A stretch of DNA of 64,000 nt from Escherichia coli (lineage in GTDB: Bacteria > Pseudomonadota > Gammaproteobacteria > Enterobacterales > Enterobacteriaceae), in assembly GCF_041886205.1 (NCBI RefSeq), contig NZ_CP169029.1; one strand, written 5' to 3'. Every line of letters begins with the position of its first letter. The stretch's first letter is position 1. The translations under genes and the position numbers were made by a program. The notes under the pieces were generated by a model. It saw nothing but the letters and a program-made list of their open reading frames with translations, was not told the origin of the DNA and searched no databases. Positions 24,279 through 35,421 of the stretch are shown in pieces.

Positions 24279-26126
24279 TTACCTGATTAATTGTTCCGCT
24301 TTCGATACGATTTGCGAGCTGGATCGCGCAGGCAGATCATAATTGTAAATATCTGTACGATACTGGGTACGACCATCTGCACCAACAAAGGCAGTCAGGT
24401 AGTAGAGATTCACCGGAATCGACTGCCGAATATTGACGTAACGCGTATCACCCTGCTTCAGCGCATCAGAAATACGTTTGTCATTCCAGCCTGCATCCTG
24501 CAACAGCATATTCGCCAGATCGGAAGCTTTATTCACTCGTACACAGCCTGAGCTCAATGCGCGTGTATCACGCTTGAACAGATTGTGGTTCGGCGTGTCA
24601 TGCAAATAAATGGCCTCTGAACTCGGCATATTGAATTTATAGCGCCCCAGCGAGTTCCGTGGGCCTGGAGCCTGCTGGAAGCGGAACGGTAAATTCGAGG
24701 CCGTGATTGTAGACCAGTCAACCTGCCATGGGTCAATCGCTTCTCTGCTGTTCCAGCCGCGCATCACCGTATAGCCATGGCTTTCGAGATATCCCGGATC
24801 GTTGCGCACTTTCGGCAGAATATCTTTGCGTGCCAGAGTTGGTGGTACGTTCCACGGCGGGTTTACCACTACGTTGTTAAGGGCACTGCTCATCATCGGC
24901 GTTTTGCGATCGGGGCGACCGACAATGACTCGGGAATCCAGCACCTGATTGCCGTTCTGATAATAAACCAGCGAATAGGCCGGAATGTTAACCATGATCC
25001 CGGTAGAAAGCTCTGTTGGCAGCAAGCGCAATCGCTGGATGTTGAGTGCCAACACGCCAGCACGCTGGGCGGGCGTTACGTTTAACCAGTCCCGCGTTGC
25101 CGGGCCAATAGCACCATCTGCCCCCAATCCTTGCCATGCCTGAAAACGTTTAACGGCTTCCACCAGTTCATTATCGTAGGCGGCGCGAACGGCAGGCGCA
25201 GGTTTACTACGAGACGTCGTTTGTTTGTCCATCGGCTTAGTTTCTGCTGTTTCAACAGTAACAGCGGATGGGCTGACTACCGCGTCAGTTGGCGTGTCAT
25301 CGCCAGGTAGCGTAATTTTCGGCCCCCCGTCCAACATGCCTGTGCGTTGCAATATTTCGCGCAACGCCGGTACGTCGTTACTCCACTGCCCTGGGCGCAA
25401 CGTTGCTTTGCCGGTCAGTTGGGGCCACGGTTTGGTGTCACTAAGTAAGGCCAGTAACGACTCATGCATCGCCGCATATTGCGGATGCTGCGGTGCCAGT
25501 CCTGCAACAAACGTAGGCAATTGGCCTTTATCCAGCGCCAGCTGCCATTGGTTAATCACCGAAAGCGGCGGCGTTGCAAGCGCATAAGGTTTACTGCTAT
25601 ATAGCCAGCGAGTGCCTTTGACTGGAATATTTGCAATGAAATGGAGATAGCCCATCATCGCATCAGAGAGCACCACGTCGCGTGCCATCCCGTTAACACC
25701 AGGATCGGTCAGTAACTCTACCCATTTATTAAACTGCGGCTGGAAACCGGCAATCGCCACCTCTGCCAGCTGTTGCTGGAAGGCTTTAACAGCATCACGG
25801 TTTTCCCACATGGGTTGCATATCGCGTGCGGCATACAACAATTGAAGCTGGTTAAGATAAACCGGCTTGTAACCTGCGGGTAATTGAGATTCGATTTGCG
25901 TGCGGGCTTTTTCTGCCGCACCTTCAGGCAATGGCTGGATCCCCGCCATTATTGCCGTGGCTTGCGCCTGCGGCAGTGCCTCGCCCTGTTCACTGACAGC
26001 CACCGGGCTGTCGCCAGGGATTACTTCAGGCTCATCGGCCTGCGCATTGAACAGTGGAGCGAATGTTACGGCCAGGCACAAACTGATTGCCGACAGCCGA
26101 CGACCACACATCATATTAAGCAACAT
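24279..26126 (-). CDS. ldtD: L,D-transpeptidase LdtD (YcbB)
   Basis: 615-aa ORF with signal peptide and C-terminal YkuD-type catalytic region (HDTPNHNLF...SSGCVR). Confidence 0.9.
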
Positions 26127-26349
26127 CCCTTGCCCCCTGTTTTTATCATACTCTGAATAGCCAGGCTGTTATTTTACGACTTGCCTGTACAACGCCAATA
26201 CTCACGAAAGTATGACGAGCAAGCCTGTTACTCATCAGGCTTATCTTCAGTATATAAACGCCGATACGTTTTTACATAACCTAATGTAAAGAAGTTTAAA
26301 GAAAAGCGCGCCGTAATGTGCCACTTTTTTAGTGCAGAAACGGAGTTTT

Positions 26350-26382
26350 CGGAAAAAGAAAAGGCGGCATTGCTGCCGCCTT
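26350..26382 (-). terminator. Rho-independent terminator after mukB
   Basis: Stem aaggcggc/gccgcctt followed on minus strand by ttctttttcc. Confidence 0.5.
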
Positions 26383-26386
26383 CATT

Positions 26387-29300
26387 TTAACTCGCCTGGG
26401 AAGGCGCTTCGTCACTTCCTGGAAGCGTTTCAGGGAGTTGCGGCGCAAATCCTCGCAGGCCGACGACGTGAACATGTTCGGTATTCTGGAAGACTTTACG
26501 CACCAGTTTATAGGTGGTGCCTTTCTCCGGGCTGATATTTTCCGGCGCTGCGATGATGAGCTGCATTTGCAAACGTTCACACAATTCAAACAGCGTGGCG
26601 ATAGAACGAGCATCCAGTCGCGCTGCTTCATCGAGGAACAGCAGGCGGCAAGGAGAGATATCTTTACCGCGCAGGCGGCGAGATTCATCTTCCCAGCTTT
26701 GTACCACCATCACCAGAATCGACATACCGGTACCAATCGCCTCACCGGTCGACAGAGCACCAGACTCTGCGCGCAACCAGCCATCGGAACCACGGTTAAC
26801 CTCAACTTCCATTTCCAGATAGTTGCGGTAATCCAGCAGTTCTTCGCCAATGGTCTGCGGCGTGCGCTGCCCCATATCAATCTGCGGATTAAGACGCTGA
26901 TACAATTTCGCCAGCGCTTCCGAGAAGGTCAGACGGTTGCTGTTAAACAGATCCTGATGCTGCTCGTGCTGTTCAGAGAGCACATCCAGCAGCATGGCGT
27001 GCGTTTCACGCACGTTCACGTTCAGACGTACGCTGTTCACCTGACCAAACGATACGTTCTGCAAACCCTGGTTGAGCATACGGATACGGTTCTGTTCGCG
27101 CTGAATGGTTTTGCGAATAATGTTCGCCACGCTGCGGGAACTGATCGCCAGTTTCTGTTCACGGGAGGTTAATTCTTCGGTCAGACGGCTAAGCTCGATC
27201 TCCATCTGTTCGATAGCTTCCACCGGATCATCGGTACGAATAATATCCTGACGAATACGTTCACGCAGATGCTGATAAACCGCCACGAAGAACTGAATTT
27301 TACGTTCCGGACGTTTTGGATCTTCCGACATACGCAGCACGTCGCGCAGATGTTCGTTATCCGCCACCGCCAGACGCAGCGCACCTAACGCCTTATCCGA
27401 CATGGAACGCAAATCATCAGCGGAGAGATAAGCCAGCTCACGACGGTGTAAGCGGCGCTCAACGCCGTTATCTTTCACCATGCGCATCACCGCACACCAG
27501 CCCGCTTTGGCGGTCACTACCTGCTCGCGCATCTCAAAGTAATCCCGCTCCAGCTTGCGCAGTTTGCGGGTCAGGTTGTCCATCTCCGCTTCGCAGAAGG
27601 TAAGCGCTTTTTCCAGTTGATTGCGGCGTGAACGGTTATTGCTCAGTTGCGCATGCAGCTCGTCACGGCGAATACGCGCCCGCTCTTCTGCCCCGCTATC
27701 AGCACGCACGCCGATATCCTGCAATTCACGTTGCAGATCGTTGAGTAGCTCTTTTTTGGTGTCGTAAGAACTTTTCAGCGAAGCCAGCACCTGGTTGTAC
27801 TGACTCAACTGCGCTGCGTGACCGCGCAACGCTTCGCGAGCGCGGGTACGCTCCGCTTCCGCCTGTTCCAGACGTTCACGCAGTTTTTCGTTGAGATCGC
27901 TGTTACCGCTAAGCATTTCTGCCGAGTCAGAATAGCTAAAGTGCGCACGACGCTGCACCACTTCCGTCAGGGCAAACGCCTGCTGACGGGCATCGCGCTG
28001 CATCTGCTGAGAGTACGCGTAATCTTCTTTTAACTGTTCGAACTGTTCCGGGTCGCTCTGCAATACCGAAACGATCGGTTCCAGTTTCGCCAGTTGATTG
28101 CCAAACTGCTGAACAAAACGCGCAGCTTCCTGGGCTTCATCCAGACGTTCGCGGATTTCATCGACGCGATCCGCCAGGCTGTCATCAGCCAACAGGTTGA
28201 GACGCGGCAGAATGCGGTTCAGCGCCGTAACGCCTTCTTTCGCCTGCTCAAACTGAATACGCTGCTGCTGGTTATCATTTTCATGATTACTCAACGCCCG
28301 CTCCAGTTCGACGCGACGGCTGTTCAGTTGACGGATTTCTGCTTCCGGGTCAGACTCAAACGCAACCGCCAGATGACTGCCGATAAAGCGGCTGAACGCC
28401 TGATGCAGACGCTGAGTTTTCTGTACATCAAAGGAGAGCGTGGCGAAGCGTTCGGAAAGCACTTCACGCTCGGCATGGAGGCTTTCAATACGGCTTTCAC
28501 GCGCAGCACGACCAAACAGCGGCACTTCCGGGAAACGTGAATAACGCCACTGACGATCGGCGATTTTCACCACTACCGCTTTTTCCAGCTCATCAACGCT
28601 GAACACGCTGTCATCGAATGACTGCGGATCTCCTTCGATCAGATAGAGATCTTCCGGGCAATCGGTCAAGCCTTCCAGGTGTTCAGTTACCTGTGACAGA
28701 TCTGGCACCACGATGGCGTGGCGTGACGGGCCATACAGCGCTGAGAAGTACGGCGCATCTTCCAGGCTAACGTCGTCATAAATTTCTGACAGCAGCACAC
28801 CACCAAAACGCTCCGCCAGCGCGTTCAGACGCTGATCTTCAGAGCCGCCAGGCTGGCTTAAACGTTCGATCTCTTCATCGACGGCGTTTTTGCGCGCGCC
28901 CACTTCATCGCGTTCAACAATCGCCTCTCGCTCACGCTCCAGCAACTGTTGCAGATATTCGGTGACGTCCTGGCTGGAGGTAAACTCTTCGCCGCACTGT
29001 TCGCTCAACTGGTTGAGACTGTTTTGCGCTGCCAGCCAAACCGGCGCACGCTGCATCAAACTCTGAATGCGAGACTGCAGCTGTTCCTGCTCCTGGCGCA
29101 GTGCCATGCGCTCTTCACGGGCGTTAGACACGCTATCGGAAAGAGAGGCAATGCGTGCTTCCAGTTCCTGATGCAGGGCTTCCAGTTCGTCGATATCAAA
29201 ATTCTTGCCCTGACGTTTGCAGAAATCTGCCAGCAGACGCTCAGCTTCTTGCTGCTCGCGTAGACGCTGTTCCAGTTCGCTTAATCGCATCCGCAGCGGC

Positions 29301-30847
29301 TGAACCTGCTCTGCCAGGTGACGCTGATCGACCCCTTCGCGCAATAGTTCGCGAGCGACATCCCACGCCTCGTTACGCGCCAGTGGGCCGTTGATTGCCA
29401 CCACCAGCTGATAAGCCTGCTCAAACTGGCTGTGCGCGGTTTGCGCCATGCTCATTTTCTGCTCAAGAGAGAGCATTTTTTCAGTCGCTTCCAGCTCTTT
29501 CGCCTGGAAGGTTTCCAGCCATTCGGCGGCGCTGTCGGCGGTTAAGTCCGGCAGATGGCACAGTTCTTTGGCGCGATTAAGCGCAGCAATCGCCTGGTTA
29601 TACTGGATCGCGCGCGTTTGCTGGACGTCCAGCGCCTGCTGGTAGTCAGCAAGCTGGCTTTTCAGCTCGTCCACTTCCAGTTCGGCAGCTTCCGCACGAA
29701 CCTCGTTCTCTTCCTGGCGTTCGATGGCTTCTGCCACCACTTCGTTTTGCTCTTCCAGACGGATCTGCAGCTCATCGAGATCCGCTTCGTAGCGTTCGAT
29801 CTTCTCCTGCTGACGCAGTGCGGTTTGCACCAGGTTCAGGTGATCGCTGGCCGCCTGATAATCCGCTTCCAGATCGCCTTCGGCACCGTTGTGCTCTGCC
29901 AGCTCACGCGCCATATCGACGTGTTTGTACTGCTCAGCCGCCAGTTGCTGACGCGAAGTATGTAGCTCGCGACGAAACTCCAGGGCTTTGTCGAGATGGA
30001 CACGGCGCTCGTTGGCGTGACGCATGTAGTCCGCCGCCACGTAGTTGGTAGCTTCGCTGATCAGATGCTTAAACAGGTCACGGTCCGACTGGGTGACACG
30101 AATCGCTTCCAGCGTCATGCGGTTTTCACGCAGCGCCGCTTCCATGTCCTGGAACGCTTTACGCACGCCGCTGTTTTCCGGCAACAGGTAGTCGCGCAGA
30201 GAACGGGTAATGGCACTGGAGATCCCGCCATACAGCGAAGCTTCGATCAGACGATAGAATTTGCTACGGTCAGATGCGGAGCGCAGACGACGCGCGATGA
30301 TGCCCAGATCGAACATCATCGAGTGGTAATCGGTAATGGAGTTGAACTGTTTAAACTGCACGCCTTCCATCGCCTCGAGCTTGTCTTTCAGCTCGTTAAG
30401 CGGCAGCACGCGCGCCTGGCGTTCGTTCAGGGTTTCGGTCACCAGCTGTGTCGGCTGCACCGACATCGGCAGTCCCTGAATGGCAAATGGTTTGATATCC
30501 ACTTTACGATCGCGTCCGGCAACCTGTTGCAGACGCACACCGACCACCACGCGCTGGTGGCGCGAGTTAATGGTGTCGAGCATCGAATAACAGACACCCG
30601 CTTTCAGCTTACCGTGCAGACCTTTATCGCGCGAACCGCTGGTGGCCCCGGCTTCCGTAGTGTTACGGAAATGCAGCAGGGTCAGGTCGGGGATCAGCGC
30701 CGTAACGAACGCCGCCATCGTGGTGGATTTACCCGCCCCGTTACCGCCGGAAAGCGTCGTGACCAGCTCGTCAAGGTCAAAAGTTCGGGCAAAAAAGCCG
30801 TTCCAGTTAATCAGCGTCAGTGAGCGAAATTTACCGCGTTCAATCAT
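26387..30847 (-). CDS. mukB: Chromosome partition protein MukB (SMC-like condensin)
   Basis: 1486-aa ORF; N-terminal Walker A (GGNGAGKST), long coiled coils, C-terminal ABC signature/Walker B (LLFLDEA). Confidence 0.97.
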
Positions 30848-31551
30848 TATTCTTCCTCTCCGCTATCTGGCTGGCTCTCTTCGGTTTCATCGTTGAGTTG
30901 CAGATGATTTTCAATCGGCATTGCTTCGCCATCACGAATCAGGCGACGCTGTGCTTCACGGGGATCGTCGCCAGCACGCACATCGGCTCCGAAGCGGAAC
31001 ACCGATTCGGTAATGCGGAACTTGCTGCTGTCGTGGCCCATAAACCACACCATGCCTAAACGACGCAGACGGTTGAGCGAAGAACGTACTTTCTCCTGCA
31101 ACTTCTGACGGTCAACGTCTGAACCGGTTGAACGGTTGTTCACCAGTTTCAGCAGTTTTGCTTCATCGGCCAGGGTGAGCAGCTCGTCGTACAGTTCCTG
31201 CTGGGTGAAAATCCCCTCATTCGCCAGCCGTTCCGGGCTGAGATAGAGATAACAGAGGATTTTCCCGACCATCATATCCAGTTCCGACAAGACGGAACGA
31301 GGGATCAGCGTGGTGGAACGTGGGCGTAAATAGAAGAACCCTTCTGGTGCGCGAATAAGCTCAACGTTATAACGCGCGTAAAACTCTTCCAGATATTCCT
31401 GAAAATCCATCAGGAATGCATGATTATCCAGTTCGTCGAGGCCAATATGGCGGCCTGAACGTAAGGCGCTGTCCAGCGCCGGAAATAACGGATTCGCCAG
31501 CGCCTGCGCCAGCTTAACCGGCATCACTTGTTCAATATTTGTCGATGACAT
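30847..31551 (-). CDS. mukE: Chromosome partition protein MukE
   Basis: ORF 30847..31578; start at ATG 31551 ([21 protein letters not shown]), 234 aa; stop overlaps mukB start (TAATG). Confidence 0.9.
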
Positions 31552-32854
31552 GCGCCTGTACCTTGGCTCCGTAATCATTAATCGGCTGCCATTTCGCTGG
31601 CAGTCCGGTGAAATCTGCTTGCGCTACGCCAAGACGTACCGCCTGATCAATAACAATGCGCGCAACGTCAAAGTGACGTGCACGCGGATACTGTGACAGA
31701 TATTCGCGTACCACCAGACCAAGATCCAGCGGCACTTGTCTGGTTTTGTACACGGCAAGTTGTTCTTCGATGATCGCCGCCAGCTGTTCGCGGATCTCGT
31801 TAAACTCTTCGTATTCTAAATCTGGCGGAAGTTCCCCAGTCACTTCTTCATCGCGCAGTGCCATCTCTTCGTCACGCATATCCAGCAGACGATCGGCATT
31901 GGCATAAGTTAGCGCCCACGGCTCATCAAAATAGGTTTGTACCGACTGACGTAACCGCTGAGCAAAGACGCGGTTTTTATCCATATCGATCGCGGTACGA
32001 ATAAATTTGTGTACGTGGCGGTCGTAGCCAATCCACAAGTCGATGGATTGCTGGCCCCAACTGATAATACGATCGAGTTTGCTCTGCAGATCGAACACCA
32101 GACGATCGACGAAATGCAGATCGTCATGGGTCATCGTCGCATCCTGAATGCGCAACAGATTAGCCTGCAATTTGTCGCCTGCCGCTTCCAGCGTATCCTG
32201 CAATTCACGCAGCGTTCCGGAAGTTTCCGAAAGCAACAATTCACAGCTGGAAATCGCCGCCCGCCAGTCTTTGTTCAGCAACTGGGCGATATCGTCCTTC
32301 ACCTGCTGCTGCTGTTCGTCCATCAGACGTTGCGTCAGGTCGATACTGTCGAAAATTTCTGCTACCGAATATTTCAGTGGCGCATAGACATTACGGTGCC
32401 AGTGAAATTCATCACCGCCCTCTTCGGCGGCATCTGCTGCGCGTTTGAGCTCACCCGCCACAATCGACAACTGCATAGAAAGACGCAGCGTAGAAAACTC
32501 GCGCTGACGGATGTAGTAGTCAGTAATGCCGATGCCGAGCGGCGTCAGACGGTAAATTGCGTTCCCTTCCGCCTGCTCGCTGGTAAAGCGGTTCAGCAGA
32601 CGTTGACGCACCATGTCGTTGATCGCGTTATTGGCGCGCACGCCGATGGTTTCGCTGGTTTGCTCAAACGCATCACTCACATGGCGGAATGCATCCACCA
32701 GCTCGCCTTCACTCATCTCACCATCCAGACGCTCGCCGTTCAGCGTGGCAACCGCCAGCAGAAAAGAGAGTCGGTCTACCGGCAGCGAGATGGAGAAGTC
32801 ATTTTTTCTGGCCCAGGCAACCAGTTCGGGGACTGTCTGGGAAAATTCACTCAT
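31532..32854 (-). CDS. mukF: Chromosome partition protein MukF (kleisin)
   Basis: 440-aa [24 protein letters not shown]...; 3' end overlaps mukE start by 20 nt. Confidence 0.95.
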
Positions 32855-33636
32855 ACTTTATCCTTGCTCTGCGGTTTGCGCGCGGTGACATGAATATAAC
32901 GCCCCAGGGTAATATACGGTTCCTGACGGCAATAACGCGTTTCTAATTCAAGTAATGCTTCATAGCAGTCGCGCTGCTGGTGTTTCTCGCGCAGATAATC
33001 ATGAAACACGCGAACGCCTGTCTTACCCATAATTTGCCAACCAGCTTCTTCCAGCCACAGATAAACCTGCGCCGGGTCGCGTGGATAATCTGGCGAAAGC
33101 GTCCGTTTTTTCTTTTTCGGCATTCCCGCCTGCACGTAATCAAAATTCCCGGCGACCATGTTATGCATCAACAAACCATGCGCATTGTAGAACATTAACG
33201 ACAACACGCCGCCTGGACGCAACACTGACCACAGGGTCTGCAATACACTGCGGGGATCGGCCACCCACTCGAGCACCGCATGGAACAATATCAGATCAAC
33301 GGGCGTTTCCAAATGCGAAGCAACATCCTGAGCGGCGCAATGTATAAATTGCATGTTGTCGCTCACACCTTTTGCTTCTGCCGCCTGTTTTGCGCGGTCG
33401 ATCATCTGCGCAGAAAGATCGCATAAAATGACCTGATGCCCACACTCGGCCATTTTGATTGCGGTCTGCCCTTCTCCACCGCCAGCATCCAGCACACGCA
33501 GTTTTTGCGGGCCCATTTCCGCCAGCACGCGATCGAGATCCTGCCACAGAATAGCCTGTCGAAGCTGCCCTTTGGTGGTGCCGTAAATGTTACGGGAAAA
33601 CTTTTCCGCAATATCATCAAAATTGCGATCCTGCAT
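32851..33636 (-). CDS. cmoM: SAM-dependent methyltransferase CmoM (SmtA), tRNA cmo5U methyl ester formation
   Basis: ORF 32851..33648; start at ATG 33636 ([13 protein letters not shown]), 261 aa; SAM-binding motif VLDAGGGEG; stop overlaps mukF start (ATGA). Confidence 0.9.
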
Positions 33637-33771
33637 TGCTTTCTCCACCGGTTGGCTAAGACGTTTTCTGATAAAGACGCTATTTTGTCACAGCCACGGC
33701 GAGAATGAACCCGTCTGGTGTAATATCGCTGGCGATCCCTTGCTATATGGTTAAAAAAGGAACCAGAAAGG

Positions 33772-34551
33772 ATGCTTTTTACACTGAAAAAAGTGATTGG
33801 CAATATGTTGCTGCCACTTCCGCTAATGTTGTTGATTATTGGCGCTGGTCTGGCGCTGCTGTGGTTTAGCCGTTTTCAAAAAACCGGGAAGATTTTTATT
33901 AGCATTGGGTGGCTGGCGCTCTTGTTATTGAGTTTGCAACCGGTAGCCGACCGCCTGCTGCGTCCCATCGAAAGCACCTATCCGACATGGAATAATTCGC
34001 AAAAAGTGGACTATATCGTGGTGCTCGGAGGTGGTTATACCTGGAACCCGCAGTGGGCACCGAGCTCTAATTTAATCAATAACAGTCTGCCACGCCTGAA
34101 TGAAGGTATTCGCTTATGGCGCGAAAATCCGGGATCAAAACTGATCTTCACGGGAGGCGTAGCAAAAACCAATACGGTGAGTACAGCGGAAGTAGGTGCC
34201 AGAGTTGCGCAATCGCTGGGCGTGCCGCGCGAGCAAATTATCACCCTGGATTTGCCAAAAGATACCGAAGAAGAAGCTGCAGCAGTGAAACAGGCGATTG
34301 GTGACGCCCCTTTCCTGCTGGTGACCTCCGCATCACATCTGCCGCGGGCGATGATCTTTTTTCAGCAGGAAGGGTTAAATCCGCTACCAGCCCCGGCGAA
34401 TCAGTTGGCCATCGACTCGCCGCTTAACCCGTGGGAACGGGCAATCCCTTCTCCGGTCTGGTTGATGCATAGCGATCGTGTTGGCTATGAAACGCTTGGC
34501 CGTATCTGGCAGTGGCTAAAAGGTTCGTCAGGCGAGCCACGGCAAGAGTGA
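33772..34551 (+). CDS. elyC: Envelope biogenesis factor ElyC (YcbC), DUF218
   Basis: 259-aa ORF with N-terminal transmembrane segments; divergent from cmoM. Confidence 0.85.
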   Translation: MLFTLKKVIGNMLLPLPLMLLIIGAGLALLWFSRFQKTGKIFISIGWLALLLLSLQPVADRLLRPIESTYPTWNNSQKVDYIVVLGGGYTWNPQWAPSSNLINNSLPRLNEGIRLWRENPGSKLIFTGGVAKTNTVSTAEVGARVAQSLGVPREQIITLDLPKDTEEEAAAVKQAIGDAPFLLVTSASHLPRAMIFFQQEGLNPLPAPANQLAIDSPLNPWERAIPSPVWLMHSDRVGYETLGRIWQWLKGSSGEPRQE

Positions 34552-35421
34552 TTTTGATGCCAGATCGAAGTTGCGCCGACTAAATCGTCCGGTATTAACC
34601 AGTTGCGCAACTTCATCCCATAACACATACAACCAACGCCGCCAGATGAACGACTCCGCCACTGGCGCGCGTTGCAGGTAACTCCAGAGCAAATCTTCCG
34701 CCAGAGAATTATCCATTAGTCGGAACAGTTCGTATTCTCGCGGTGCCCAAAGCATTAGTCCCGGCCCGACCATCGCCAGTAACTGATCGCTGCGCGAATC
34801 TTTCAACATGCTGCGTAAACAGAAGTTACCGTGAATCAGCACACAATTGTCGTTAAAGCCTTCAAATAATGCCGGGAGACATTCGCGAGTGCGAAACAGG
34901 ATCCGCTTATCCTGCATCGTCAGACCGGTGTTATTGAACTGATTGAGCGTGGTCCATAGCACTTCAACATGTTGCCGGTACCATGAGGGCCAGAAATTTT
35001 CCTGAGTATTGTCGACCGCGCCGACGCAACCGCGACTGTCCTGACGGTGCCAGGCCAGTAAGGCTTCAACGATTTGGTCTTTGAGTTGTTCCCAGCGTTC
35101 TGGTGTTCGGGCTGGTGCCTCCACCGAAACACCACGCATCCGCTCCAGTAGCAGGACATCGGGGCCGGGGTGTTCTTCATGCGTCATCACACCATAAATA
35201 GTCGGCATACGGACAGTCCCACTTCTTGCCAGCATGGTGGTTTTCCATGCCAGTTGTCGGGCTTTTCCGGGCGTACTAAAGCTTCTTGCCATTAACGGCA
35301 TTGGGTTTCCCTGGCTGTCATACAAAGCCCACAACGCCGTATCCGCTTTTTCATTGACGCACTCAATACGACTGAGTTTTTCGCCCAGTAAATGGCTTAA
35401 TTCGGCACGCAGCTGTTCCAT
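34528..35421 (-). CDS. ycbJ: Putative phosphotransferase/kinase-like protein YcbJ
   Basis: 297-aa ORF MEQLRAELSHLLGEKLSRIECVNEKADTALWALYDSQG...; synteny. Confidence 0.8.
   Translation of the reverse strand: MEQLRAELSHLLGEKLSRIECVNEKADTALWALYDSQGNPMPLMARSFSTPGKARQLAWKTTMLARSGTVRMPTIYGVMTHEEHPGPDVLLLERMRGVSVEAPARTPERWEQLKDQIVEALLAWHRQDSRGCVGAVDNTQENFWPSWYRQHVEVLWTTLNQFNNTGLTMQDKRILFRTRECLPALFEGFNDNCVLIHGNFCLRSMLKDSRSDQLLAMVGPGLMLWAPREYELFRLMDNSLAEDLLWSYLQRAPVAESFIWRRWLYVLWDEVAQLVNTGRFSRRNFDLASKSLLPWLA

Follow-up and report, generated by a model that had tools for sequence, protein, structure and literature searches.

The genes cmoM, mukF, mukE and mukB of this locus very probably constitute the Escherichia coli cmoM(smtA)-mukFEB operon, in which one mRNA is translated with an efficiency specific to each cistron and CmoM is carried along as a passenger. 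The window, by which we mean the whole stretch of 64,000 nucleotides analysed here, is a piece of the E. coli chromosome reaching from dmsA to ycbX. Over the full 64 kb, its length and gene order match the dmsA-ycbX region of one E. coli record, and the segment 30700-33900 was found at an identity of at least 95% (95-100%) in 5425 of 5426 complete E. coli genomes. The genes concerned are given below; the RefSeq annotation of a 100%-identical E. coli record carries identical coordinates, overlaps and gene names.

32851..33636, minus strand: cmoM (formerly smtA), tRNA cmo5U34 methyltransferase of 261 aa; ATG at 33636, TGA at 32853..32851
31532..32854, minus strand: mukF (kleisin), 440 aa; ATG at 32854..32852, TGA at 31534..31532
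30847..31551, minus strand: mukE, 234 aa; ATG at 31551, TAA at 30849..30847
26387..30847, minus strand: mukB (SMC-like ATPase), 1486 aa; ATG at 30847..30845
33772..34551, plus strand: elyC (DUF218), the neighbour diverging from cmoM

The identities proposed for the four products by the first-pass annotation were confirmed by NCBIfam equivalogs and, for CmoM, by a solved structure. CmoM matches NF008264 with 502.1 bits against a cut-off of 366, residues 1-261 falling on profile positions 1-261, and across the same residues it matches the crystallised E. coli protein (PDB 4HTF / 8JOZ) with an E value of ~1e-178. MukF (NF003615, 845 bits), MukE (NF003602, 412 bits) and MukB (NF003422, 2647 bits) each match their equivalog full-length and above the cut-off; with three equivalogs matched and the genes in the required order mukF, mukE, mukB, the set belongs to the MukBEF condensins. 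Mutagenesis identified R26, D73, W124, Y150, R209, D213 and R246 as essential residues of CmoM, with Y247 partially so (Sakai et al., PMC4737166), and all eight catalytic residues are found in the CmoM of the window as well as in the homologues of Vibrio cholerae and of a contig with 64% GC. Two plus-strand open reading frames antisense to cmoM (33081..33347 and 33436..33708) were rejected as chance frames, since they oppose a conserved annotated gene and are without independent support. Among the papers searched, the tRNA literature, which speaks of CmoM, and the condensin literature, which speaks of ‘SmtA’, make no cross-reference to each other, while databases already combine the annotation.

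All four genes are read from the minus strand, a point that the first-pass annotation had left out. The three overlaps that it described could be read from the sequence and are the same in RefSeq. The cmoM stop and the mukF start share ATGA at 32854-32851 (a 4-nt overlap), the 3' end of mukF overlaps the start of mukE by 20 nt at 31551-31532 (ATGTCATCGACAAATATTGA), and the TAA of mukE shares one base with the ATG of mukB in the sequence TAATG (a 1-nt overlap). Stop/start overlap or abutment, by which translationally coupled cistrons are recognised, is found at all three junctions. At the same time, a separate Shine-Dalgarno sequence precedes each of the four cistrons at normal spacing to the start:

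33643..33646, minus strand: Shine-Dalgarno sequence of cmoM, GGAG, 6 nt before the ATG, read from the sequence
32861..32865, minus strand: Shine-Dalgarno sequence of mukF, AAGGA, within the 3' end of cmoM and 6 nt before the ATG
31564-31560, minus strand: Shine-Dalgarno sequence of mukE, AAGG(T), with an 8-nt spacer to the ATG
30858-30855, minus strand: Shine-Dalgarno sequence of mukB, GAGG, with a 7-nt spacer to the ATG

The overlaps of cmoM-mukFEB are ordinary and no more than is usual for operons. Within the window, 10 of the 40 co-directional neighbour pairs overlap, and a 4-nt overlap occurs in five pairs, namely msbA/lpxK, ycaR/kdsB, cmoM/mukF, ssuB/ssuC and ssuD/ssuA. Fold energies of the RNA at the four start sites and junctions were no better than those of shuffles (z of 0.6, -1.1, 1.0 and 0.0), and coupling gated by structure at the junctions was rejected because folding is not stronger there than in shuffled sequence. 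A hidden RNA element was also rejected, an Rfam search of 26000-34600 having returned zero matches at E<=1.

That cmoM is the first cistron of the muk operon, as claimed in the first pass, agrees with the operon literature, with a promoter swap and with equal smtA and mukF mRNA. As related in later papers (PMC4255302, PMC3871593, PMC9239193), smtA-mukFEB has counted as a single operon since Yamanaka 1995/96, and it is treated as one operon in the review of Nolivos and Sherratt and by She et al. (PMC3871593, PMC4255302). Chen et al. (PMC4332155) described smtA-mukFEB as one transcript with a single lifetime over all segments and co-transcriptional decay, and in Dickeya, Nanopore long reads span the orthologous unit (PMC9239193). 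When Mäkelä and Sherratt put Para in place of the native promoter upstream of smtA, MukB (as MukB-mYpet) increased 6.3-fold (PMC7163298), which shows transcription from in front of cmoM running through the whole of mukB and not the internal promoter, with no read-through, that the first-pass annotation had named as the contrary outcome. The mRNA levels of smtA and mukF are equal (162.3 vs 161.2; Burkhardt et al., PMC5318159), as expected if the two genes are co-transcribed and cmoM contains no significant promoter. The operon has been known for a long time, and the statement about it is correct and contains nothing new.

Consensus scans between the four cistrons gave no strong promoter-like and no terminator-like site, and inside cmoM, mukF and mukE they detected nothing sigma-70-like on the minus strand. 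The genes have the sequence marks of an operon: one strand, overlaps of 4, 20 and 1 nt, no internal signals and a terminator-like hairpin after mukB. The 135-bp spacer between elyC and cmoM gave no minus-strand site above threshold in a consensus promoter scan. An alignment of 78 Enterobacteriaceae upstream regions revealed a conserved block, TTCATT-16 nt-TGaCAAAAT, at 33709-33682, which is the most conserved part of this intergenic region. From its conservation we infer that the TTCATT/CAAAAT block may be an extended -10 promoter, well below consensus. The hairpin at the other end is likely the end of the operon and would serve as its terminator.

33682..33709, minus strand: candidate operon promoter, with TTCATT at 33709-33704, a 16-nt spacer, then TGa and CAAAAT (extended -10-like), the hexamer lying at 33687-33682
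26360..26383, minus strand: strong intrinsic-terminator-like hairpin and T-run, with 10 pairs, 6 of them G-C, 4 nt after the mukB stop

The first-pass annotation had further implied stoichiometric co-expression from these overlaps, and here the published measurements disagree. Ribosome profiling by Burkhardt et al. (PMC5318159, supplementary file 1) gives the values below, in which ribosome density stands in for the rate of synthesis, on the assumption of similar elongation speeds.

smtA (cmoM): mRNA 162.3, ribosome density 44.7, translation efficiency 0.276
mukF: mRNA 161.2, ribosome density 78.5, translation efficiency 0.487
mukE: mRNA 220.9, ribosome density 130.3, translation efficiency 0.59
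mukB: mRNA 223.1, ribosome density 116.5, translation efficiency 0.522

Ribosome densities of 44.7 : 78.5 : 130.3 : 116.5 (CmoM : F : E : B) are not those of equal synthesis. By this measure (PMC5318159), CmoM is made at ~0.57x the rate of MukF and at ~0.35-0.4x, or about one third, of the rate of MukE and MukB, and at equal mRNA mukF has 1.76x the ribosome density of cmoM. Since a downstream cistron fed by re-initiation alone cannot exceed the upstream one, most initiation at mukF is independent, and it must occur mostly de novo at the gene's own AAGGA and not through re-initiation by ribosomes ending cmoM. Of the proposed translational coupling, the stop/start overlaps stand; that downstream translation depends on and is limited by upstream translation does not, as density rises downstream at equal or near-equal mRNA and no occluding structure was found. 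A stop/start overlap is no proof of equal expression, the downstream cistrons here being translated 2-3x as much as the first one.

Among the Muk subunits, the same data (PMC5318159) give a ratio MukF:MukE:MukB of 1:1.66:1.48 by ribosome density. The complex contains 2 MukF and 4 MukE per MukB dimer, with one MukF fewer in the presence of ATP (PMC4255302), and the synthesis ratio is roughly consistent with these subunit ratios. CmoM is not a subunit of the complex, and the concept of proportional synthesis is therefore inapplicable to it; if present, proportional synthesis is limited to the Muk subunits and set by translation efficiency. A proteome table (PMC6544118) has MukF at ~142, MukB at ~506 and one MukE peptide, and its values were left out of the ratios because CmoM (as SmtA) is missing among the entries listed. 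The mRNA of mukE and mukB is ~1.37x that of cmoM and mukF (PMC5318159), an excess that could stem from a weak promoter within mukF or from unequal decay of the transcript.

Relatives were scanned with a 6-sequence MukF alignment, taking one genome per species; the best 80 loci are all from Enterobacteriaceae, and more distant contexts were taken from single look-ups. Among these best 80 loci, all 79 with upstream DNA have a CmoM homologue (72-97% identity) directly upstream of mukF. The cmoM/mukF junction of these 79 loci takes three forms:

8-nt overlap: 36 loci
3-nt gap, TAA-NNN-ATG: 32 loci
ATGA, 4-nt overlap: 11 loci

Over the relatives, the spacing varies between -8, -4, +3, +11 and +36 nt, and the exact ATGA overlap is not conserved. 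The AAGGA (or AGGA) of mukF is retained in the Enterobacteriaceae loci of this best-80 set whatever the frame of cmoM at the junction. The mukF gene opens with ATG AGT GA., which contains a TGA stop for each of the two alternative frames, and the remaining frame closes at the TAA within the AAGGATAA motif. With stops in every frame, the non-conserved C-terminal tail of CmoM is free to shift frame, and the mukF Shine-Dalgarno sequence stays. The two downstream junctions are more stable than cmoM/mukF: the 20-nt mukF/mukE overlap is strongly conserved, being present in 78 of the best 80 Enterobacteriaceae loci, in V. cholerae and in the 64%-GC contig, and the mukE/mukB junction is -1 in 67, -8 in 6 and -4 in 5 of the best 80 loci. 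What relatives retain is the mukF Shine-Dalgarno sequence and the 20-nt overlap, while the cmoM/mukF junction drifts.

The 20-nt overlap exists because the 234-aa start of mukE was adopted. An older annotation, also used by Burkhardt et al. (PMC5318159), gives a product of 225 aa from an ATG 8 nt past the mukF stop. Of the best 80 Enterobacteriaceae loci, 78 retain the upstream ATG and the N-terminal MSST(N/D)I, as do V. cholerae and the 64%-GC contig, and the old start, Met10 of MukE, is Leu in the latter contig, whose MukF identity is only 50%. Conservation thus supports the 234-aa start as the probable one over the 225-aa start, which some expression datasets still keep.

Outside the Enterobacteriaceae, the order cmoM-mukF with divergent elyC was encountered in V. 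variabilis/maritimus and one more contig, with an 11-nt spacer, and in the 64%-GC contig, with a 36-nt spacer; in V. fischeri, VF_A0430-0432 form a predicted smtA-mukFEB operon (PMC3948606). The two genes are also found apart. Candidatus Regiella insecticola, with its reduced genome, shows kdsB-181 nt-mukF and no cmoM at that place, an AT-rich contig has mukF without cmoM upstream and its own promoter-like TGTATAAT motif instead, and MukF lineages of <=46% identity likewise have no cmoM in front of mukF. To our knowledge, Pseudomonas aeruginosa has no MukBEF. Homologues of cmoM are present in this species and in Pseudoalteromonas (Sakai et al., PMC4737166), and Haemophilus somnus is without smtA (PMC2912659). 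The linkage of cmoM and mukF is old in the Enterobacterales-Vibrionales branch, and either partner can do without the other. Its persistence from E. coli to Vibrio exceeds what one would expect of neighbours by pure accident, and some selective reason for co-transcription is possible.

It is very unlikely that ribosomes ending cmoM re-initiate at mukF and onward, so that CmoM and the condensin subunits would be produced in fixed, equal amounts. The ATGA, 20-nt and TAATG overlaps which such a chain would use are real, and the cmoM/mukF junction is tight (a gap of <=3 nt or an overlap) in 79 of 79 Enterobacteriaceae species from the best 80 loci. However, the 1.76x higher ribosome density on mukF at equal mRNA, with mukE and mukB higher still, does not fit such a chain, nor does a Shine-Dalgarno sequence in front of every cistron; the exact overlap shifts among relatives (from -8 to +36 nt), folding against shuffles found no structure masking the start sites, and in Regiella and other lineages mukF is expressed without cmoM in front of it. 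We likewise see only a slim chance that mukFEB is transcribed mainly from a promoter inside cmoM or mukF, which would make cmoM in effect a separate gene. Equal mRNA for cmoM and mukF speaks against this, as do the 6.3-fold MukB response to the Para swap upstream of smtA (PMC7163298), the single lifetime of all smtA-mukFEB segments (PMC4332155), the operon-spanning Nanopore reads in Dickeya (PMC9239193) and the lack of a sigma-70-like minus-strand site within cmoM, mukF and mukE, and the 4-nt overlap leaves no room for a promoter. What would agree with it is the ~1.37x level of mukE/mukB mRNA relative to cmoM/mukF and the promoter-like TGTATAAT upstream of mukF in AT-rich lineages lacking cmoM. 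A weak promoter in mukF that adds to transcription could still be reconciled with a single mRNA translated cistron by cistron.

Co-transcription could also tie wobble-uridine methylation, and with it the decoding by tRNA Ala1, Ser1, Pro3 and Thr4, to chromosome condensation, a proposal that we hold to be highly improbable. The link could be a control by growth rate or cell cycle (Dam/SeqA) that the genes share, or muk mRNA could be decoded in a CmoM-dependent way. The proposal would accommodate the order elyC<->cmoM-mukFEB, preserved between E. coli and Vibrio despite a CmoM identity of only ~50%, the GATC density of 8.9 per kb in cmoM and 8.3 in mukF vs 4.3 for the window, the report of cmoM and mukF as SeqA-binding targets (PMC2912659) and the change of terminal methylation of tRNAPro3 with growth phase (PMC4737166). 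The Muk literature, however, regards smtA as unrelated (PMC3871593, PMC4255302), each gene is found without the other in some lineages, and mukF, mukE and mukB show no enrichment of codons read only by mcmo5U tRNAs (z of -0.3 to +0.1 per codon). The route by CmoM-dependent decoding was rejected on this lack of enrichment of GCA, GCG, UCA, CCA and ACA codons, and our literature search found no paper linking cmoM function with muk function. If the tie were true, decoding capacity and condensin supply could, for instance, stand under one cell-cycle signal, with transcription timed to replication via the GATC-dense 5' region. We would be surprised if the linkage between Escherichia and Vibrio, elyC included, reflected a real regulatory tie of this kind between wobble methylation and condensation, for example by Dam/SeqA, and nothing among the present findings supports a functional tie.

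Under the reading that we prefer, a single mRNA with cistron-specific translation, one promoter in the 135-bp elyC-cmoM spacer would give rise to a polycistronic mRNA of ~7.3 kb, ending at the hairpin after mukB. The amount of each protein would be set by the translation efficiency of its cistron, each with its own Shine-Dalgarno sequence, so that MukF:MukE:MukB would come to roughly 1:1.7:1.5, near the ratios in the complex, and CmoM would be made about half as fast as MukF. The overlaps may aid downstream initiation by terminating ribosomes, without fixing a 1:1 ratio. The cmoM gene, which encodes a functionally unrelated tRNA wobble-base methyltransferase, would be an old, conserved and dispensable passenger on the shared promoter of the muk locus of Enterobacterales and Vibrionales. 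For a standard, well-studied E. coli operon with routine overlaps, this means little beyond bookkeeping.

The smtA(cmoM)-mukF-mukE-mukB operon of E. coli K-12 (b0921-b0924) is the same locus, alike in order, overlaps and products, and in comparison with other E. coli the strain of the window carries point substitutions only, with otherwise no substantive difference. The locus of V. cholerae, elyC(DUF218)<->cmoM-mukF-mukE-mukB, resembles that of E. coli in the 20-nt mukF/mukE overlap and in having all CmoM catalytic residues, but differs by an 11-nt cmoM/mukF spacer (TAACAGGAnnAnCnATG) with no overlap and by a CmoM identity of 50%; its mukE and mukB overlap by 4 nt. Within the window, the compact operons msbA-lpxK, ycaR-kdsB and ssuEADCB share with cmoM-mukFEB the types of junction and the position of the downstream Shine-Dalgarno sequence inside the upstream coding sequence. 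Unlike in these three, cmoM has no known functional tie to the other cistrons of its operon, and cmoM-mukFEB can be set against them as one whose cistrons differ 2- to 3-fold in measured translation.

At the cmoM/mukF junction of the Escherichia coli operon, the sequence AAGGATAAnnnATGAGTGA (window 32851-32866) supplies each of the three frames with a stop codon no more than 8 nt from the mukF ATG, and the same holds for the Enterobacteriaceae loci compared here (L002-L081, the best 80 loci of the MukF-alignment genome scan). Among the 79 species with upstream DNA in this set, the reading frame of the 3' end of cmoM varies at the mukF start, with three different outcomes: the two genes overlap by 8 nt, overlap by 4 nt, or are separated by 3 nt. 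Since every frame is stopped near the mukF ATG, the tail of CmoM tolerates frameshifts and the junction stays in place. The two proteins also meet in a 90%-identity protein cluster, whose representative is the MukF of Vibrio cholerae (445 aa) and which includes many CmoM members with a length of 259-260 aa. This mixed composition suggests either that some gene call in which cmoM and mukF are fused or chimeric bridges both families, or an artefact of the clustering.

Further downstream, published mRNA abundances (PMC5318159) amount to 161 for mukF (window 31532-33636 holds cmoM and mukF) versus 221-223 for mukE (30847-31551) and mukB, a rise of about 1.37-fold, hinting that mukF contains a weak promoter or that the 5' part of the transcript decays at a different rate. 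The start of mukE itself is annotated in two ways, with two rival sites on the minus strand at window 31524-31551; the product comprises 234 aa in the current RefSeq and 225 aa according to an older annotation, which is still in use in the table of Burkhardt et al. (PMC5318159). A distant mukF locus with cmoM upstream, located on a contig with a GC content of 64%, carries Leu at the position of MukE Met10, and this replacement, together with conservation in Vibrio, favours the start of the 234-aa product.

Elsewhere in the window, GATC density peaks at 1001-3000 and 10001-12500, with 14-16 sites per 1.5 kb; these stretches cover pyrD, a published SeqA target, with its leader, and ssuD-ssuA. 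Rfam matches were counted when above the gathering score:
2407-2480, minus strand, PyrD leader, upstream of pyrD (97.9 bits)
13953-14031, minus strand, naRNA4/CssrE, a REP-derived nucleoid-associated RNA (82.2 bits)
The convergent genes elyC (plus strand, end 34551) and ycbJ (minus strand, end 34528) have the last 24 nt of each in common (34528-34551).

Two more distant loci display other arrangements. On the metagenomic contig L085, where MukF identity is 46% and no cmoM lies upstream, all three Muk proteins are oversized (MukF 503 aa, MukE 457 aa, MukB 1599 aa), and the muk genes are separated by gaps of 56 and 138 nt. In Candidatus Regiella insecticola (L094, GL379590.1), mukF is broken into at least two ORFs (228 aa and 150 aa). 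The locus lacks cmoM, elyC, and ycbJ, so that kdsB adjoins mukF, and it looks like a case of decay through genome reduction.
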